A program made the translations under genes and the position numbers. From a virus (lineage: Duplodnaviria; Caudoviricetes), in the IMG/VR virus record IMGVR_UViG_3300044957_001482, positions 34,179 through 98,178 of that record: DNA of 64,000 nucleotides. One strand, written 5' to 3'. Position 1 is the stretch's first letter; every line of letters starts with the position of its first letter. Below, one piece after another: positions 9,978 through 18,565 of this stretch. The notes below the pieces were generated by a model. That model was not told the DNA's origin, did no database searches, and worked only from the letters and a program-made list of their open reading frames with translations.

Positions 9978-10417
9978 CCTACCAATTTGCTCGCATAGAT
10001 CTCAACAAGACATCTTACCAGGCCACAGTGGACTGGCAATATATCACGGATCGCGATGACCCGACACTGACCAAATTAAATAATATCTACCGCACCTACT
10101 GTATCTACAAACGCTTTGCCTCGGTCATGCCCGTGTTTCCAAGTAGATACCGTGACTCCATGTCCGATGTCATTGGCTATTATGACCAGGGTGAATTGGT
10201 GGCCTGGAGCCTGATACGAAGATTTGACTCTCACAATGCATTGTGTGATCAATTTGCCTGGACTTATCATCGACCAGGCATGAGACTGGGAATCGAAAGC
10301 ATGAAGACCGAATGCGCCATCTATCGAGCACGAGGTTTTCACTATCTCTACCTTGAGCAAGCGCATTTGTACAAGCAAGAGATCGACGGATTTGAATTAC
10401 TAGGACCTATGACATAA
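9974..10417 (+). CDS. GNAT-fold aminoacyl-tRNA transferase-like protein (ATE C-terminal-domain-like)
   Basis: ATG at 9974 overlaps the upstream stop. YYDQGELVAWS...RLGIESMKTECAIYRARGFHYLYL...YK parallels the ATE_C pattern YxxGxLxA...LG....E.......G..YxYL....YK. Confidence 0.55.
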   Translation: MTYQFARIDLNKTSYQATVDWQYITDRDDPTLTKLNNIYRTYCIYKRFASVMPVFPSRYRDSMSDVIGYYDQGELVAWSLIRRFDSHNALCDQFAWTYHRPGMRLGIESMKTECAIYRARGFHYLYLEQAHLYKQEIDGFELLGPMT

Positions 10418-10749
10418 TGGATTTATACACTATCTGGGCCGACAAGGACGGCGACATTTCGGATGTAGAGTGGGTAGCAGGAATGAAGCAATTTTTTGAT
10501 CATCTGGTTACCGAGGGCAAGATGCAGGGCTACAGAATCACACGTTGCAAAATGGGATTTCGTAGCATCTCAGACATGCCCGAATGGATGATCATCATGG
10601 AATTCCGGGACATGGCACAGATGGATCAGGCATTCCGCCGTGTGGCTCGCAAAGAAGGCGAACTGGAGGATGCTCATAGATCGTTCAATCAGTTTGTGGC
10701 AGGCAACATACAACATGCACTGTTCCGAGACTGGCCAGATGACATCTAA
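10417..10749 (+). CDS. Small dimeric alpha/beta-barrel-like hypothetical protein
   Basis: 110 aa: YTIWAD...YRITRCKMGFRS..PEWMIIMEFRDMAQMDQAF...H...ALFRDWP. Start overlaps the upstream stop. Confidence 0.6.
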   Translation: MDLYTIWADKDGDISDVEWVAGMKQFFDHLVTEGKMQGYRITRCKMGFRSISDMPEWMIIMEFRDMAQMDQAFRRVARKEGELEDAHRSFNQFVAGNIQHALFRDWPDDI

Positions 10750-11159
10750 GATGTGCTTCGCACATCTGTTCTTCGCTTGCGCTCGAACTGTTTGTCTGTA
10801 CTAAGTATCATCCAGATTTAGTGGTCATACTTGCCCGTTGCCGGGCAAGTAATGGTCGCATCATCCGAGTTTACGCAGCCATTTTGCACGAGAAGATTTG
10901 TACTTGATGAACAGACAATTCTGTCGAGAACTGTCGGTCTAATACGTACAACGGAGGTGGTTGTGCTGTACCCCCTACTTCAGCCTTGACTCACAACGGA
11001 ACGTGTGTGACCCTGTGCAAACAAAGTCGACCACGCCAAGGTTGTGTCTTTTTCACAGAGCCTTGATCATTTCAGCCTTAGTTAGCTGTTGCCTTTGACA
11101 CCCAAGATCCGCCGGTAAACTAATACAAGCTCAATGGGGACCAGTCCTGTTCACTGGTC
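10749..11159 (-). ncRNA. Candidate large structured non-coding RNA (family not recognised)
   Basis: A ~410-nt gap with no ORF in the track, between convergent genes, in an otherwise gap-free genome. At least six stems; G-U pairs and a GCAA tetraloop favour the minus strand (details in findings). Confidence 0.6.
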
Positions 11160-12186
11160 ACAGAGTCTTTGAAAGTTGCCTTACGAAAGTGTGATATGTG
11201 TTTGGTTCTAACAGTTGATGTAATTGTTGTGTGTTGGTAAATTTTTTGAGGCCATACGATCTAAGATTGAGATTATGATGATATAGTAAATGATGTTGAA
11301 TAGCTGCTTCACGCATAAGGTCGAGGTCAAATCGGTCAAGCGCAAGATTCTGTCCGTTGAGTATGGCCTGTATGATGCGGTCAAATGCCCAGACAAATCG
11401 CATACGGTCATAGTGAATCCTGGACCAAACTCGATAGAGGCTCAACCAGGACGACCATCTATCTTCGACCAACTCAACACCAACATGCTTCAAAAGATCG
11501 GGCATTGCTTGATCTAGACAGAACCAATTTTCTGTGGCTTCTAGACCATAGTAATTACAATGATCGAATCGCTCGTCGCTGAATCCTGGCTGTGCAGGGG
11601 GCATGTTGAGAGCCAGGAATTCTCGCAGATCCCAGATTTGATCGAGTCCTTGTGATTTCCATATCGCATAATCCCGGCCAAAGAAAAATTCAATGAAATC
11701 GTGATTTTGTTGGTCCGCGGTCTGGTTGACAGCCGAAGCATCTTGCCATTTTTTTCTCAGTTTCCGAGGTTCCCATTTTGTATGGTACCGATGATACTGG
11801 CTGGACAACCGCACACGTATCATGTAGTCGCTGTGTGTACATGCTAGATCCACGGTTTTTTGATCTAGCACAGGGTCAAATGGCCATTTATTGTCCGAGT
11901 CGATGTCAATTTGACCACGTTCAAAATTGTGAAGATACACTATCTGTGTGGTTGATTGGGACAATGGCCGTAGCGTGTCAACACACTGTTGAAGTTCGTT
12001 GAGGCTGGTAGCATGATTCACAGCAAACTGGTGAGCATTTCGCTCAGTCAATGGGTTGTCTCCGACTTCACAGGTGCTGTTGGATTTTACATGGTAGTGA
12101 TGATCCTGGCCAGACAGCCTCAGGATGCTCCAGGCCAAAAAGGTGCCTCCGACTGCAGGATCTGTGATTAGAGAAATCAACGGCAT
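11158..12186 (-). CDS. Hypothetical protein with sulfotransferase/P-loop-like N-terminus
   Basis: 342 aa. ISLITDPAVGGTFLAWSI resembles a beta-strand plus GxT PAPS-binding loop. Confidence 0.45.
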   Translation of the reverse strand: MPLISLITDPAVGGTFLAWSILRLSGQDHHYHVKSNSTCEVGDNPLTERNAHQFAVNHATSLNELQQCVDTLRPLSQSTTQIVYLHNFERGQIDIDSDNKWPFDPVLDQKTVDLACTHSDYMIRVRLSSQYHRYHTKWEPRKLRKKWQDASAVNQTADQQNHDFIEFFFGRDYAIWKSQGLDQIWDLREFLALNMPPAQPGFSDERFDHCNYYGLEATENWFCLDQAMPDLLKHVGVELVEDRWSSWLSLYRVWSRIHYDRMRFVWAFDRIIQAILNGQNLALDRFDLDLMREAAIQHHLLYHHNLNLRSYGLKKFTNTQQLHQLLEPNTYHTFVRQLSKTL

Positions 12187-12692
12187 AAATCACGCACGGT
12201 ATTGGCATTGAGTTCCCAGAACAGCTCATGGTCCATGATGATCCACTGGCCACGAAGCCCGGCGGCATAATTGAAATGTCTGGTATAGATCAATGAAGTC
12301 TGATTGGGCTGCAACTGAACAGCCACATACGTGCCTTTGCGATTGAACTTCATAAAAATAATGTTGAAATCGCCGAGATCAGACACAGCCATGCATTGAT
12401 CGATCCAGTCGTCCAAAATTTTGACCGATCCTGAAAAAAGCTGATGAAAAGGAAAGTTCTGGTAATTTTTGCATTCTGCGTTGAGCCTGGAAAACGATTC
12501 GCCGGGTATGATGTCGCCCTTGAATGTGCGTATCTGTCCTTCGTGCAACAACTGTTTGCGATGGGTGTTTTTTCCACCTATGTACGCGCCCGACCCCGGC
12601 GCTCGCATGAATCGCTCACCGTAGAGTTCGGTGAGAAAATCCGCGATGTAACGCTCAAAGGAGTTGCCTTTGGTTTTGCTGGGACTGGGCAT
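12177..12692 (-). CDS. Holliday junction resolvase (Hjc-type PD-(D/E)xK nuclease)
   Basis: SKTKGNSFER...PGSGA...GDII...AECKNY motif set. Confidence 0.8.
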   Translation of the reverse strand: MPSPSKTKGNSFERYIADFLTELYGERFMRAPGSGAYIGGKNTHRKQLLHEGQIRTFKGDIIPGESFSRLNAECKNYQNFPFHQLFSGSVKILDDWIDQCMAVSDLGDFNIIFMKFNRKGTYVAVQLQPNQTSLIYTRHFNYAAGLRGQWIIMDHELFWELNANTVRDLCR

Positions 12693-12696
12693 GGTG

Positions 12697-13275
12697 TTAT
12701 TGTTTATGATCTAGATTGACCCAGGCAGTAATTTCCTCTATACAGGTGTTACTTTGCATGGCAAGACACAGCGTTATCATGTCAATGATATCAGTTAGAG
12801 AATGGCCAAGGTCTGTGGGTTCTGCGAGTGCCCGACTCGTTGGCTTCGCCAATTGATCGACATTGAGCAACGTTGTCCTGAATCTCACATGGTTTTGCTT
12901 AAAGGCTCTGCTCCATTGATGACTGTGATATCGCAAAACTGCTTTGTTGGCAGCATAGAGATCATGGTCCAACACAGGCGGAATTTCCGAGACACTGGCC
13001 ACTCCACCTATATTAATAATGTAGCCGGATTTATCACACTGCTTCCAGGTTGTAGCAAGTTGGTTGAGTAATTTGGTTTGGCAAAAATCACCGTTGATTT
13101 CGCCATATACCCCATCATATGCATTGTTTATAAAAATATCATGGTCAAGACTTGCCTGTACTAGATCATTGATATTATTTCGTAGATCGTGCCCGGTACT
13201 GCGGCTAACACTGCTTCCCTTAAAATGTTGACAAATGGCCAGGCCCAGGCCTTGATTTCCGCCGGTTATCAACAT
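12697..13275 (-). CDS. Short-chain dehydrogenase/reductase (SDR)
   Basis: ITGGNQGLG (TGxxxGxG), FINNA, IINIG and catalytic YAANK (YxxxK). Confidence 0.8.
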   Translation of the reverse strand: MLITGGNQGLGLAICQHFKGSSVSRSTGHDLRNNINDLVQASLDHDIFINNAYDGVYGEINGDFCQTKLLNQLATTWKQCDKSGYIINIGGVASVSEIPPVLDHDLYAANKAVLRYHSHQWSRAFKQNHVRFRTTLLNVDQLAKPTSRALAEPTDLGHSLTDIIDMITLCLAMQSNTCIEEITAWVNLDHKQ

Positions 13276-15035
13276 TTGACTTCTATGTCGGAACTATAAT
13301 TGGTAAATCCGCCTTCTTTGACCACACGCAAGATATTGTTCACACGCCCGACCAATTCGTCTCGATGACTTACTAGCCAAATTGATTTTTTACGATCTCG
13401 GCTTATCTTTTTCAATAACGATAGAGAATTTTCCATGCCTGCAGTGTCCATGCCCGAATCAATTAATTCATCAATAAACAGGAGATTGATGGAGGAATAC
13501 AAACTTTCCCACACATCACGGAATGCCCAGCTCATTGACAGTATCAATCGATTGCGCTCGCCGCGACTCAAGTTATCAAAATCAAGATCGCGCCCTAGCT
13601 CTGAGATCTCGACTGTGAGATCGTTCTGGAATATGACCCGATGAGGCAATCCAATGCGGTCAAGATAATAAGTGAGACGAGAATTTAGATAGGAAAGATT
13701 TTGTTCGATGATTTTTTTGCGTATGAACGAATCTTTGTTGGTGAGAAGCTTGAGCAAGAAGTCCTGGTGATCTTGCAGCCGAACAAGTTCGTTTAGCGAG
13801 TCATAGTCTACCACTTGCAGAGCCTGTTTCTGCATCTCTACGATTTGCTCACCGTAGGGATCAATTTCCCCTTGCCGCAGCGCAAGGTCTCGACGCAACT
13901 GATCTAGGCTGCTGCGATGATTCAGCGCCTGTTCTAGATCATCATAGAACACTGCGGGCATTGGACCAGCGATGCCCAGCCGAGCCAAGGCATCGGTATG
14001 TTCTGTTCGTTGGGTCTGATTTGCAAGTAGTTGCGCGACAGTGTCTTTGAGCTCGATCTGCTTGTTTTGTAGCAAGTCGTCCTGGTGATGGTCGTGCAGT
14101 TCGTGCCCGCAGGCGTGACACCGGCGTTCCTGTAATTTTTGTATATCCTTCCTGAGAGCAGCCTCGGCCTTGACAAGACGTGCCAGATCAAGGTCTATGC
14201 TGACAATCCATTTTTGTGCGTCCACACGCGCTGTAACAGCGCGGTTGTATTCGTCTAATGCACGGTGCGATCTGATTTCCTGATCGATATCGATATGCTC
14301 CAGTTGGTCTATAGCAGTCTGCAGTGCAACACAATCTTCTTGTTGCTTTTTGATCCACAGTGTCTGGCGCGTTTTAAGACTTTCGATCTGTTGTTCGATT
14401 CTACGATTGGCTTCCTGCAACGCTCGGATACGTAACTCTTCGGCAACAATGGTTTCCCTGGTAGAACGATTCAGCTCCTTGATACGTTCTGCTCGCTCGC
14501 TCAGCTGTGTAATGCCCAACAGTTGTTCGATGATTGCTCTCTGATCATTGGATTTGAGACTAAGAAACGGTTCGGTATAGGTATTTAGAGCTACAATGTG
14601 TCGGAACATGTCGTGGCTCATTCCTAGCAATGTGTCGATGGCAACCTGTGTTTCTCTGCTATCGCCTTGGCTGTCATCGGTTACCACTTGTTCCTGGTGG
14701 TTAACATAAAATCTGAGTACATTGGGTTTGCGACCTCGTTCCACTCGGTATTCCTGTCCGTTGACAGAAAAATCAAGACTGACCAACATGTTCTTACCGT
14801 TGGTTTTGTTGATGAGATTGTCTCGACGGATGTTGGTCAGGGCCTGACCATACAGCGCGTAACTCAGTGCATTGATAATAGTGGTTTTACCGGTTCCGTT
14901 TCTCGATCCATCGCCACCGAGGTCTAGATTTTCTCCCAGCACCAACGTAAGATCCTGTCGGTCAAAATTAACAGTCTGCGATGCGTTGCCCACACTCATG
15001 AAATTTCGCACAATAAGATGTTTTATCTGAATCAT
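13269..15035 (-). CDS. Recombination endonuclease ATPase subunit, T4 gp46/SbcC/Rad50-like
   Basis: Likely start MIQIKHLIVRNFMSVG at 15035. Walker A NGTGKTT, zinc hook CHAC, signature LSRGE, Walker B LLFIDE and H-loop VSH. Confidence 0.93.
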   Translation of the reverse strand: MIQIKHLIVRNFMSVGNASQTVNFDRQDLTLVLGENLDLGGDGSRNGTGKTTIINALSYALYGQALTNIRRDNLINKTNGKNMLVSLDFSVNGQEYRVERGRKPNVLRFYVNHQEQVVTDDSQGDSRETQVAIDTLLGMSHDMFRHIVALNTYTEPFLSLKSNDQRAIIEQLLGITQLSERAERIKELNRSTRETIVAEELRIRALQEANRRIEQQIESLKTRQTLWIKKQQEDCVALQTAIDQLEHIDIDQEIRSHRALDEYNRAVTARVDAQKWIVSIDLDLARLVKAEAALRKDIQKLQERRCHACGHELHDHHQDDLLQNKQIELKDTVAQLLANQTQRTEHTDALARLGIAGPMPAVFYDDLEQALNHRSSLDQLRRDLALRQGEIDPYGEQIVEMQKQALQVVDYDSLNELVRLQDHQDFLLKLLTNKDSFIRKKIIEQNLSYLNSRLTYYLDRIGLPHRVIFQNDLTVEISELGRDLDFDNLSRGERNRLILSMSWAFRDVWESLYSSINLLFIDELIDSGMDTAGMENSLSLLKKISRDRKKSIWLVSHRDELVGRVNNILRVVKEGGFTNYSSDIEVKC

Positions 15036-15128
15036 TCTATTTTTATAGATTCCTATAGTGATAATACAAAAGTTCGATAACTGATTGTGATGTTCGCCGG
15101 GGGGGTCGTCGACAAAAATACATTGCAA

Positions 15129-16646
15129 TTATACTTGATATCCCATTGCAGATGCAATTTCTCGATGAGTATCGGCAAACGTTTCATGTCTTCGTTGGTC
15201 AAGCATTGACATGTATTCCACGAATTCCTGACCGTTGCTACCGGCACTGGCTGATATTCTTTTTGCCAAATTTGAAAGTTCTTTGATATTGTGATTTTTA
15301 TACTTGGAAACCACCAATTCCTTTGCTAAATCGGTCATGTAATCGACACAAAGATATGTTGGCTGGTCTAGATAGTTAAGAGTGATATTTAGATCTTGTT
15401 CGCTGGCCCAAAAAAACAATGACTCGAGATACAAAACATTCTGTATGTTAACTGTTGGCATTATGTAAATGCGTAGTTGGCTGTCGGCCCAACTTTTTAA
15501 CTTGTTGATATTGTCTTGTATTTCTTTCCAAGATCCGCCACGTTGCAATTCAAATCTTTGGTTGGTGTCATCGATGCTGACAGCTATGTCTACCGATTGA
15601 AATTTTTTTAACAATGGCATGAATTTTTCTGGATAAACAGAACCATTGGTATTGATGTGTAGACGTATGTGATCACTGTCTCCGGACTGGATAGCCAGTT
15701 CTAAAAACAAATATATGTTTTTGAGCAACAACGGCTCGCCACCGTAAAAATCGATATTGATAAGGTTGGGCAACAGATTGATCAGTTGTTCGAGAAAATC
15801 TTTGTTGTGGTCAAACCATCTGCCCTGGTACAGTAAAGACAAAATTTCAGTTTTATCATCGTGTGCGGAGTATCTCAACTTTTCAACAGCGATACTCGAG
15901 CTGGAGGCCGGGGAACATATCCTGCATTTGAAATTGCAAATATTACCGGCCTTGATGTCAATGGATTGCAGCGTTGGATTGTCAATGAGCTCACTCAACA
16001 AATGTTGTCGATACAGACTCAAATGATTTTGTCGATTGCTGGTCAGCCCATTTTTTTCAAGATTCCAGCAATGACTGCATCCAACCGGCTGCTTGCCGTC
16101 AGACAATTCTCGACGCAGAGCGGTAAGGCTGGTGCCGTGAAATATATTTTGCATGGTATCCGTGGATACCGAACCAATTTTGCCTTGATAAACACAACAC
16201 GGTGCATAATGTCCGGTATTGCTAACAGCCAGGTGCATCCAGGGCATGGGGCAAAGGGTCTGTTCGTTGATCAAAAAATTGTCAGGCAATATTTTACCGG
16301 AATCTATGTCGTGAATTTCACAAACAATGGGCGACGAATCTGCATCACCGTATACTCGGTGGCTGAGATCAAACAGATGCTGAGTTGGCTCGCCGCAAAA
16401 AATCAATATAAAAAAATTGCTGATATCTACAAGTTTGGCTGCCCGTTGTATATGATCGGCCAATTGCTGGCTTGGCGCATGTTGACAATAAAAAACAATA
16501 CGTTCATTGTGTTGATACTCAAATCGATGCAGGCTTGTTAATTTTCTATAGATAGACCCGGTGGACTGATTGATTGTAGACAGATCGATCGACTCGATGA
16601 CCAAATATCTCGTTCCGATGTAATCCGATACTCCTCTATTCATCAT
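15129..16646 (-). CDS. Radical SAM protein with N-terminal SPASM/twitch-like Cys cluster
   Basis: CNFKCRIC (CX3CX2C), GGEP, and auxiliary CPMPW...PCC...CSHC. AT-rich gene sitting between gp47 and gp46. Confidence 0.9.
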   Translation of the reverse strand: MMNRGVSDYIGTRYLVIESIDLSTINQSTGSIYRKLTSLHRFEYQHNERIVFYCQHAPSQQLADHIQRAAKLVDISNFFILIFCGEPTQHLFDLSHRVYGDADSSPIVCEIHDIDSGKILPDNFLINEQTLCPMPWMHLAVSNTGHYAPCCVYQGKIGSVSTDTMQNIFHGTSLTALRRELSDGKQPVGCSHCWNLEKNGLTSNRQNHLSLYRQHLLSELIDNPTLQSIDIKAGNICNFKCRICSPASSSSIAVEKLRYSAHDDKTEILSLLYQGRWFDHNKDFLEQLINLLPNLINIDFYGGEPLLLKNIYLFLELAIQSGDSDHIRLHINTNGSVYPEKFMPLLKKFQSVDIAVSIDDTNQRFELQRGGSWKEIQDNINKLKSWADSQLRIYIMPTVNIQNVLYLESLFFWASEQDLNITLNYLDQPTYLCVDYMTDLAKELVVSKYKNHNIKELSNLAKRISASAGSNGQEFVEYMSMLDQRRHETFADTHREIASAMGYQV

Positions 16647-17659
16647 AGTGTGCGATAGATGTTCATTAGCAATTTTGGATCGTAAAATTCCGATTCAAGC
16701 CGGGCAATCTGATCGATCACAATCTGATCCACGGATTCAAACTTTACATCACCGGGCGCCATATCTTCTTCCAGTGCAGATTGTTTGTTGGGCATAAGTG
16801 CTATCTCTTGCAATGCATATTTGCCAGCAAATGTTTCTTTAATATAATTGGCTTCCTCATAAGAAATTTCAATATCTAGCTGGACTCGGACATGCATCTT
16901 GGGTTTCAGTATTTGATCCCCGCGATCAATTAAGGTTGACAAGTCAAATACATTGTAAAGAGGCTGATCGGGCCAGGCATGATATTCGGGCTCCGCACCC
17001 CAAGGCAATATCATGCAACCACGTTGGTCATCGCCGGCATCGGCAAAGTTATGGGGGAAACAGTTTCCAATGTAATTGATGTTGTTCTTGTGCTGACGTA
17101 GATGAAAATGTCCAGAAAAGACTTTTCCAAACCCTCGAAAGTGCTCGGCCTTGATCTCACCATGATCGGGCATTTCGACCATGGCATTCATTTTAAAATG
17201 TGGTAATTCAAAATGACCAAACATATACTGACCGGACATTTTTTGGATTCGCTTGTGATCATCTCCTACCAGCCACGGCGCGATCACAACATCACCTTCG
17301 CGGAACCAATCATTGCATATGTGTATGTTGGGCAGGTGCTGTGCCCAGGAAGCTCCGTGTATGTCGCGCCGATCTCGATAGTAGAGATCGTGGTTGCCGG
17401 GAATGAAGAAAAATTGCGAAAATGCCGATGACAATTTTTCTAGGCTCCTGAGGCTGAAATCCAGAGTATGCAAATTGATAGATGCTCGGTGATGATGCCA
17501 GTCGCCTAGAAATAGTCCGGTTTCGCATTCATGTTCTTGAGCCATTTCGATGACCCAATCAACAAATCGTTCACAGTCTTGATTGTGAACCACACTGTTT
17601 GATTTCAACCCAAAATGAATGTCAGTGAATGCGATTGCCTTACAAAACAAGTTTGCCAT
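16643..17659 (-). CDS. Recombination endonuclease nuclease subunit, T4 gp47/SbcD/Mre11-like
   Basis: Metallophosphoesterase motifs TDIHFG, LGD, GNHD, GHFE and SGHFH. Confidence 0.93.
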   Translation of the reverse strand: MANLFCKAIAFTDIHFGLKSNSVVHNQDCERFVDWVIEMAQEHECETGLFLGDWHHHRASINLHTLDFSLRSLEKLSSAFSQFFFIPGNHDLYYRDRRDIHGASWAQHLPNIHICNDWFREGDVVIAPWLVGDDHKRIQKMSGQYMFGHFELPHFKMNAMVEMPDHGEIKAEHFRGFGKVFSGHFHLRQHKNNINYIGNCFPHNFADAGDDQRGCMILPWGAEPEYHAWPDQPLYNVFDLSTLIDRGDQILKPKMHVRVQLDIEISYEEANYIKETFAGKYALQEIALMPNKQSALEEDMAPGDVKFESVDQIVIDQIARLESEFYDPKLLMNIYRTL

Positions 17660-17671
17660 GAGACGATTTCT

Positions 17672-18565
17672 TTATTCCTCTGAGGTGGTCACAGTCACAG
17701 CGCCTCTTCCAAACGGGTACTTCCCGGAGTTTTGTCGTGTCCAAGAAGGATTCAGTCCATTCATTTCCAAGATATCATCTCGGATGTTTTGATTTTTCTT
17801 TTCGATGTTGAGTATGCGAGTAAATGAATTGGTTATGGCCGCAGTATAGTAGGCAAAAGGATTTTGGCTCTTGGATTCGTCAAACTGCAGACCAATCTGA
17901 CTGAGTTGCAGCAGCGCCTGACCTCGCATTTCTTCGTTGTAGGTATAGCCACGCCAGTTCGATCTAGTGGCATAGCGTTCGCACAGTTTTATGAACATCT
18001 CGGCCAAGCGTCGCGTCATGGCGCCGTGATCCTTGGAAAATTCGCCGGTGTCTAGATCCCCGCGCCAGTGGCTTTTGCCCACGATGCAAGGCACGCGATC
18101 CTCGCGAATACGATAGTGCCAGAACGGAGGGAAATTCAAACGTATGTGTGTGGGATCCAATGTCGGCATGTCTGCTAACTCGGTCAGTGAATCATCCTCG
18201 AGGTCCTCGAGCTCCAGGATATCCTCCACTGTGCGTTTTTTTGCCTGCGCCTTGGCGACTTTTTTGGCGGCCATGGGTATGTGATCCCACACCGTGACGC
18301 GAAACACAAGATCGGTATTGGCAATGCGTTTGGGATCTACGACTTCTCCGGTCTCGCGGCGGATGCGATCTGCTCGATTGCGTCGAGCCTCGGCCACAGT
18401 GCGTTGATTGATGCGATCCGCAGACGCCAGTATGATATCATATTGGTGATCCTGTGCTGGGTCTAGGAAGCTGCAGTAGGTATTTTTGCTGAGATGTATT
18501 TCTTTTAGTAGGTCACGGTTGTTGAGGTAGTTGACCTTGGGCCAAGGCCGAGTGTAATAAGTCAT
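17672..18565 (-). CDS. Late transcription sigma factor, T4 gp55-like
   Basis: NYLNNRDLL...NWRGYTYNEEM...FDESKSQNPFAYYTAAITNSFTRILNIEKK is the gp55 signature; located next to gp47/gp46. Confidence 0.88.
   Translation of the reverse strand: MTYYTRPWPKVNYLNNRDLLKEIHLSKNTYCSFLDPAQDHQYDIILASADRINQRTVAEARRNRADRIRRETGEVVDPKRIANTDLVFRVTVWDHIPMAAKKVAKAQAKKRTVEDILELEDLEDDSLTELADMPTLDPTHIRLNFPPFWHYRIREDRVPCIVGKSHWRGDLDTGEFSKDHGAMTRRLAEMFIKLCERYATRSNWRGYTYNEEMRGQALLQLSQIGLQFDESKSQNPFAYYTAAITNSFTRILNIEKKNQNIRDDILEMNGLNPSWTRQNSGKYPFGRGAVTVTTSEE

Follow-up and report, generated by a model that had tools for sequence, protein, structure and literature searches.

The locus

The stretch of DNA analysed here (the window) comprises 64,000 nucleotides (nt) of a 98-kb virus record of IMG/VR, IMGVR_UViG_3300044957_001482, whose completeness is estimated at 28%, and the element under study is an RNA encoded in a gap at 10750-11157 that lies between two converging genes. 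All positions are coordinates in the window, and the RNA is read on the minus strand. The gap is bounded by the gene of a DUF6614 protein, which runs on the plus strand and ends at 10749, and by a gene named P0001, which runs on the minus strand and ends at 11158. A first reading of the letters alone (the original prediction) had described a large non-coding gap and placed in it a minus-strand RNA, large and structured, with which a gp55-gp47-gp46-resolvase transcript would end; the gene boundaries and the gene order agree with this description, as do covariation and strand evidence, and there is very little doubt that the gap encodes a real structured RNA on the minus strand. Specifically, the analysis shows a single-copy gene of ~400 nt with about a dozen helices, a pseudoknot, and a three-way junction of the helices P8, P9, and P10. 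The RNA is a core element of a group of T4-like jumbo phages of ~320-350 kb from lakes.

Conservation and structure of the RNA

Homologous loci were collected by fetching the best 80 of at least 596 relatives of the DUF6614 protein and at least 120 further stretches through the pattern of the most conserved hairpin (P9), giving a search set of 201 sequences (200 loci and the window). In blastn comparisons, the gap is kept as conserved blocks in many DUF6614 loci, and blastn together with an nhmmer profile locates the RNA in 192 of the 201 sequences; 131 copies are full length, 104 of them unique and aligned. With the exception of one close relative, the full-length homologues are 53-67% identical to the window, which itself scores 243 bits against the full-length profile. 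The RNA is found within the 3-kb flank in 71 of the 80 loci picked by the DUF6614 protein alone, the complete genome G001 contains a single copy, and a model built from an alignment that includes the window (model R1, alignment A2) detects independent copies in G002, G005 (two copies), and G006. Three DNA contig sets that cover the stretch, two of them possibly its own source, contain neither differences from it nor joints.

For the minus strand, the predicted folding energy is -138 kcal/mol (z -2.78), a value reached by none of 100 shuffles, versus a z of -1.56 and 7 of 100 shuffles as low for the plus strand. RNAalifold proposes 52 pairs from 27 sequences, 29 of which have changed on both sides. 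In the pair test on a 27-sequence alignment (A1), 89.2% of the cells are paired versus 78.4% in shuffles, a double change is seen in 29 of 63 pairs, and the covariation score is 0.325 versus 0.139 in shuffles (0 of 500 reach it) and at most 0.084 in slid controls; in four of the five measures of this test, no shuffle among 500 comes up to the alignment. The curated model has 72 pairs in 16 helices, and 45 of the 72 pairs occur in compensatory types among the 104 unique sequences; covarying homologues, which the original prediction had named as a check, thus exist. The six stems listed there are all present in the sequence, and two of them (P2 and P5b) covary. The nested hairpins at 10898-10951 are present too, but as a variable insertion of one lineage in P10 and not as part of the core: the insertion occurs in 3 of the 27 sequences of A1 (the window, L002, and L053) and also in L161. 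Similarly, of three motifs reported to occur twice, GGATGAT is kept as a pair, whereas repetition of AAGGCTGAA and TCCGTTGT is confined to the close kin of the window.

The strand follows from base pairs that would be lost on the complementary strand. Five pairs are near-invariant G-U on the minus strand (100, 101, 100, 103, and 98 of the 104 sequences) and would be A-C on the other, which extends to the homologues an argument that had been drawn from the window. Moreover, the apical motif of P12 (GAGC-loop-GCGAA, often with a GNRA loop), with its tandem G-A pairs, fits the minus strand only; it is found 3' of box 2, the second of two short boxes described below, in 165 of 178 loci, and its flanking arms pair in 119. 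A pseudoknot between the P6 loop and the strand that precedes box 1 is supported by sequence comparison: in matched sequences, the mean length of the longest Watson-Crick run is 6.7, versus 4.0 in mismatched ones, examples reach 9 base pairs (bp) with sequences that differ between phages, and the long-range columns read UA 46 and CG 43. The lengths of pairwise insertions and deletions are mostly not multiples of three (665 leave a residue of 1, 406 of 2, and 111 of 0), and a plus-strand open reading frame (ORF) of 45 amino acids (aa) is frame-shifted in L002, which is 92% identical to the window; the region is therefore non-coding. The parts of the RNA are collected in Table 1, together with the genes around it. 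Inspection of the consensus by eye suggests that RNAs of the main class have two copies of the heptamer CUCUGUG, in the window at 11157-11163 (before P2) and 11054-11060 (in P5), both on the minus strand.

Table 1. Parts of the RNA and genes of the locus (window coordinates unless a locus is named)
Feature	Position	Strand	Remarks
Whole RNA, minimum extent P1-P12, ~400 nt	10768-11168	-	nhmmer match 11167-10802 plus conserved P12
P1 (11167-11165 with 11099-11097), closes the 5' domain	11097-11167	-	outer pair GC 82, CG 17 of 104
P2 hairpin	11139-11159	-	compensatory types in 7 of 7 pairs; in A1 both sides changed in 6 of 7; overlaps the TGA stop of P0001
P3, which encloses the hairpin P3a/P3b	11101-11138	-	one pair CG 85, GU 10, GC 7; P3b CG 75, AU 12, UA 11
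P4 hairpin	11074-11088	-	conserved loop CUAACUUAAGG, nearly invariant
P5 hairpin (P5a, P5b, P5c)	11034-11068	-	G-U pairs in 92 and 101 of 104
P5b	11037-11041/11061-11065	-	one pair UA 49, GC 36, CG 11, AU 4
P6 hairpin	11005-11031	-	loop UUUGCA (11021-11016) is the 5' strand of the pseudoknot
UUCCGUUG	10993-11000	-	CCG and UG invariant, remaining three bases at least 90%; single-stranded in the model
P8 (10981-10978 with 10895-10892), closes the three-way junction with P9 and P10	10892-10981	-	4 of 4 pairs compensatory; UA 55, AU 43, GC 5
P9 hairpin	10953-10975	-	near-invariant loop of 11-13 nt; closing pair GC 82, AU 22; G-U 98/104
P10	10898-10951	-	enlarged in the window by a lineage-specific insertion; most relatives 4 bp and GAAA loop
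Pseudoknot 3' strand UGCAAA	10883-10888	-	pairs with the P6 loop (11021-11016)
Box 1: flank ACUC (10870-10867), core GGAUGAU (10866-10860)	10860-10870	-	same core as box 2
P11 hairpin, between the boxes	10828-10851	-	10 bp, GCAA loop in the window
Box 2: flank AUCU (10817-10814), core GGAUGAU (10813-10807)	10807-10817	-	same core as box 1
P12 hairpin	10768-10788	-	apical GAGC-GCAA-GCGAA; tandem G-A beside GNRA loop, this strand only
Terminator-like hairpin	10749-10767	either	seen in the sequence, directly after the DUF6614 stop
DUF6614 protein gene	10417-10749	+	PF20319, E 3.5e-24; convergent neighbour; at least 596 relatives in IMG/VR
P0001	11158-12186	-	342 aa; upstream neighbour; TGA stop 11158-11160
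PDDEXK/RusA-like nuclease gene	12177-12692	-	upstream operon; followed by P0001 as last gene
192-aa ORF	between the SbcC and PDDEXK genes	-	upstream operon
SbcC/gp46 gene	13269-15128	-	upstream operon
Radical-SAM/SPASM protein gene	15129-16646	-	upstream operon, between SbcD and SbcC
SbcD/gp47 gene	16643-17659	-	upstream operon
Late sigma factor (gp55) gene	17672-18565	-	upstream operon
SegE-like GIY-YIG protein, example	L111:4925-5353	+	142 aa, PF19835, E 9.5e-33

Two boxes kept equal

The two boxes flank the hairpin P11, box 1 following ACUC and box 2 following AUCU, and in the window both have the core GGAUGAU. The 7-mers of the two boxes are identical in 98 of the 104 unique RNAs, and an equal pair in the expected arrangement is present in 179 of the 192 loci, which together display 13 different cores. 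The remaining 13 loci comprise six that are cut by contig ends, six in which one base differs, and L114, which has equal cores (ACAGAAU) with other flanks and raises the number of matched core sequences to 14. Among the 179 loci, the boxes are separated by a median of 54 nt (range 48-74), and the flanks read ACTC in 174 and ATCT in 170.

The box columns are among the top pairs by mutual information, as the same letters and not as complements (GG 54 and AA 48 in one pair; AA 58, GG 41, and GA 3 in another), and the changes of the core include transversions. On a tree built from the RNA without its boxes, position 1 yields eight independent pairs on supported branches, of which six to seven changed in the same way in box 2 and none in the opposite way (p ~0.016); position 5 yields five independent pairs, all changed in the same way. 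As a control, positions 1 and 5 within one box are not linked. Past the core, position 8 differs between the boxes (G/A in 129 of 179), whereas at position 9 they mostly have the same base (121 of 179), and simple gene conversion is disfavoured because position 8 stays different while position 9 agrees. The boxes are 73% purine. A third copy of the box in the 5' domain of some RNAs was considered and discarded because it does not follow the core. A CRISPR array or a mimic of its repeats was likewise set aside: such arrays have whole repeats of ~28-37 nt that are identical to each other, whereas here the identity extends over 7-9 nt and the remainder of each unit has its own constant sequence features, a judgement made without a CRISPR finder.

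A new class of a wider family

The original prediction took the RNA to be unclassified and named a comparison with Rfam (GOLLD, ROOL, HEARO, ribozymes) as a way to find out. The whole window lacks a match at the gathering score to the 4227 covariance models of Rfam 15, including GOLLD, ROOL, HEARO, OLE, ribozymes, introns, and riboswitches, and, at expectation values (E) up to 10, the interval 10600-11300 gives only a 12-bit chance match to a mammalian long non-coding RNA model. ARAGORN finds no tRNA or tmRNA gene in the window, and the RNA is, as had been stated, neither of these nor an intron known to Rfam. The label unclassified thus holds for the window, but not for sister RNAs at the same genomic place, which carry an Rfam family, RF01718, as their 5' half.

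Specifically, about 40 loci match the 3' half of the profile only and have a different 5' half. Among such loci, termed class 2, all 24 that were tested have a full-length match to RF01718 (82-120 bits, gathering score 37) directly 5' of a shared module of ~200 nt that consists of P6 with the pseudoknot, UUCCGUUG, P8-P10, box 1, P11, box 2, and P12. Conversely, RF01718 does not match the window either at its gathering score of 37 bits or at E up to 10, and no Rfam match was obtained for nine sequences of the main class (the window included), four of a third type (L200-like), and L084. The window fits the wider family that is defined by the shared 3' module, with its P8/P9/P10 junction, two boxes, and P11. 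Because the window has no Rfam match and the sister loci carry RF01718 as their 5' half, its RNA is a new class of this wider family, of which the other class has the orphan motif Polynucleobacter-1 (RF01718) as its 5' half. In an example at L003:3691-3826 (minus strand), the part that corresponds to RF01718 is limited to the 5'-most 141 nt of a class-2 RNA of ~420-450 nt.

Polynucleobacter-1 is listed by Weinberg et al. 2010 (PMC2864571) as a likely RNA and likely cis-regulatory motif of Burkholderiales, from fresh water or estuary. Its position after an operon and opposite a converging gene speaks against a cis-regulatory label and does not suit a 5' leader. In the phages studied here, the 15-year-old orphan makes up just the 5' portion of a longer RNA, and the RF01718 model could be extended.

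Among the titles and abstracts on structured phage RNAs that were considered, none describes the window RNA. Candidate RNAs of 29-151 nt from IMG/VR are presented in PMC10690425, and pieces of the window RNA may be among them. RNAs of such size and covariation are rarely still undescribed, and this one is a core gene of widespread giant lake phages.

Genomic setting and carriers

In the collected loci, the RNA is invariably on the same strand as the SbcC operon, and the downstream genes converge on it. The gene directly upstream varies. In 140 loci, a SegE-like GIY-YIG gene (142 aa) ends 15-25 nt 5' of the RNA; the window record lacks this gene, and P0001 occupies its place, with the 5' strand of P1 falling within the final codons of P0001. 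Free-standing homing endonucleases are common neighbours of conserved RNA genes. P0001 matches no family of Pfam or PHROG, and no relatives of it were found when viral contigs were searched for related loci. Within the collected loci, it has 41 relatives, of which 35 lie downstream of the RNA, on the opposite strand, and 6 upstream; because they flank the RNA on both sides, P0001 looks like a movable gene. The DUF6614 protein is strongly kept, with 78-86% identity among the best 80 of its at least 596 IMG/VR relatives.

The terminator-like hairpin at 10749-10767 may, judging from its sequence, end the transcripts of both strands. A consensus scan for promoters and terminators returned two promoter-like sites and one terminator-like site, the same as in shuffles. 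The cumulative skew of G over C is monotonic in three genomes and has no extreme at the RNA, and a replication origin at the RNA was rejected on these grounds.

Near-complete metagenomic genomes of related phages measure 320-353 kb, and, judged by the SbcC/gp46 protein, the nearest cultured kin are Pseudomonas jumbo phages of the PA5oct type, with ~50% identity. The SbcD and SbcC genes are adjacent in PA5oct, without the radical-SAM gene that lies between them in the window. Four non-coding RNAs of PA5oct map to other places in its genome, according to PMC7318152. Three GTDB records carry the RNA, two of them contigs of a Haliscomenobacter metagenome-assembled genome and the third a contig of a Flavobacterium one. 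The two Haliscomenobacter copies differ from each other and lie on contigs of 148 and 183 kb, and the Flavobacterium copy lies on a contig of 6 kb (L256, L257, and L258). These are probably jumbo-phage contigs that were binned with bacteria.

Proposed origin and mode of action

The upstream stop codon and P1 leave no space between them for a promoter. Most likely, therefore, transcription of the recombination-nuclease operon would produce the RNA as its 3' end and stop at the P12 and terminator hairpins; trimming to a stable RNA could follow. The fold would then serve as a scaffold that presents two equivalent boxes of 7-9 nt, each placed after a fixed pyrimidine flank and before a hairpin. 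Both boxes would pair in trans with the same complementary strand, since the box sequence is free, yet nearly always equal in both copies, and has no complement in the RNA; the partner could be present as two copies, or one strand could meet first one box and then the other.

An RNA of this kind, made as the 3' end of the minus-strand operon and acting as a scaffold with two equal pairing sites, is the best explanation overall, proposed tentatively. That the RNA acts in trans, and is not merely a 3' end structure, is held to be somewhat more likely than not, while pairing of the boxes with a common complementary strand is put forward with greater reserve. Two further, unlikely readings go beyond this: the boxes could be a duplicated, re-programmable guide, by which the same short sequence is recognised twice (e.g., on two molecules of DNA or RNA, or on the two strands of a symmetric site) and brought together for the recombination nucleases of the operon, or, more strangely, the purine-rich boxes could pair like with like in parallel. 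If the guide were real, jumbo phages would have an RNA-guided device for pairing of a kind not seen before.

Several points weigh against the scaffold proposal. A look for the stretch among RNA sequencing runs returned none that contains it, and the discrete transcript and its ends are predictions from sequence. The full 7-nt complement of the core, with G-U allowed, occurs at three positions in the 104 RNAs, not above controls; the collected loci contain 114 complementary 7-mers versus ~89 expected, without a consistent position; and G001, G003, and G004, which have three different cores, share no alignable site that changes with the core. The exposure of the boxes is equivocal, with predicted unpaired probabilities of 0.43 (box 1) and 0.52 (box 2) versus 0.40 over the whole RNA (70 sequences). 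A change from G to A could pair with U both ways, and pairing alone does not force the joint transitions. The changes of the core on the tree, at least 35 in box 1 and at least 33 in box 2, could be inflated by recombination between phages, homing endonuclease genes being adjacent, and the safe figure is therefore that of 14 matched cores. The RNA was not found in cultured phages: neither the window element nor the L111 RNA has a blastn match among 50,697 phage records, and PA5oct has none either, by nhmmer at the matching locus or by model R1 on the whole genome.

Some candidate partners were examined and dropped. A palindromic site at G001:C1:341983-342005, with two inverted copies of the box preceded by T, is present in one of five records and is probably due to chance, and the extended box motif is not enriched genome-wide in G001. 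A small cluster of complements ~275-315 nt downstream stems from codons for W-M-I in the DUF6614 gene and is independent of the core. Box 1 could also pair with the box 2 flank in the common cores, but this pairing is lost in the rare ones.

Alternative explanations

The strongest competitor of the scaffold proposal, itself unlikely, is a role in cis only, in which an elaborate operon 3' end blocks exonucleases or terminates both converging units and the boxes are sites for a protein or nuclease. The RNA comes directly after a stop codon, where two transcription units converge, and terminator-like hairpins occupy 10749-10788, all of which would suit such a role, and the failure to find a trans partner in the RNA, the loci, or the alignable genome sites speaks for it as well. 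However, a dozen conserved helices, a pseudoknot, and near-invariant loops exceed the needs of a 3' end, the RNA is constant although the gene upstream of it varies (SegE-like, P0001, and others), and a protein site would not run through 14 sequences in close relatives.

A ribozyme or multimer-forming RNA, with the boxes as sites of cleavage, ligation, or contact, is a weaker candidate and decidedly improbable. The size, the pseudoknot, and the many invariant unpaired bases would suit it, and there is the precedent of large ornate RNAs that form RNA-only assemblies (PMC12286853). Against this stand the lack of any ribozyme or ornate-family match in Rfam 15 and the nature of the changes, in that contacts between copies predict complementary, not identical, changes.

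Two explanations that rank equally, both very improbable, take the equality of the boxes as their starting point. In the first, the boxes are donor and acceptor sites of a copying enzyme, and realignment or jumping of the template gives repeated or shortened copies. Telomerase templates, retroviral strand transfer, the joining of leader and body in nidoviruses, and defence reverse transcriptases are examples of template realignment, and identity without a genomic complement is what mechanisms of this kind require. Conversely, none of five records, four of them 93-100% complete genomes, encodes a reverse transcriptase (PF00078), the joined form is absent from the three DNA contig sets, and the spacing of the boxes varies between 48 and 74 nt. 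In the second, the boxes are a feature of the DNA: either P11 is a palindromic insertion with a target-site duplication, or the boxes are recombination sites with a matching 7-bp crossover. Direct repeats of 7-9 bp do surround a perfect palindrome, and the crossover regions of tyrosine recombinases have an identical but free 7-bp core, which the free but identical core of the boxes resembles. However, the copies of a one-time duplication would decay independently, and these are equal across 14 cores; one unit or three were seen in none of the 192 loci; inverted arms around the cores were not seen (by eye only); and the boxes show constant differences in their flanks and at position 8, next to a P12 motif that is specific to RNA.

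Lastly, the chance that the gap codes for small proteins is negligible: plus-strand ORFs of 52 and 45 aa exist (10831-10989 and 10961-11098), but both start with TTG and have no PHROG matches, and the second is the one that is frame-shifted in L002, in a region whose indels have the lengths given above.

Comparison with known systems

The window RNA shares with Polynucleobacter-1 its genomic place in close relatives, the position 5' of the same 3' module taken by its own 5' half, and a freshwater origin, and class 2 appears to have an analogous pseudoknot (by eye in the alignment). In contrast, the 5' half of the window RNA (P1-P5) is a different fold, and the Rfam model, of 141 nt, ends before the boxes. 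Like GOLLD, ROOL, OLE, HEARO, and raiA, the window RNA belongs with the large, highly structured RNAs of phages or mobile DNA that were found by comparative genomics; unlike them, it is smaller (~400 nt), has no Rfam match, and has no tRNA genes beside it in the window.

The boxes invite comparison with systems that employ two equal sites. The immunity RNAs of P1/P7 (C4) and P4 (CI) have as their targets two direct repeats of the operon that encodes them, and these repeats, too, are short, equal within a phage, and different between related phages. In contrast, those systems carry the complement in the operon, and here the search of the RNA and of several kb around it found none; an immunity RNA with targets in cis was thus set aside, as the complement does not exceed controls in the RNA and is not consistently present in the loci. 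In the bypassing of T4 gene 60 (take-off and landing sites) and in the leader and body sites of nidoviruses, one strand pairs with both of two matched sites in turn, and the window RNA likewise has two identical short sites ~50 nt apart with a hairpin between them. Unlike transcription of the nidovirus type, the phages yielded no RNA-dependent polymerase or reverse transcriptase in the five records searched. A bypass element of the gene 60 type was rejected: only the matched sites are present, 10750-11157 has no minus-strand ORF of at least 30 aa, and rare cores (e.g., ACGAAAU and AGAUCAA) lack the stop codon that otherwise follows the box. We know of no RNA mechanism that readily accounts for boxes that are equal and yet variable between phages. 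Their covariation by identity, not complementarity, points to one strand that meets two equal sites, and this equal-site logic is known from strand transfer, bypassing, and recombination crossover.

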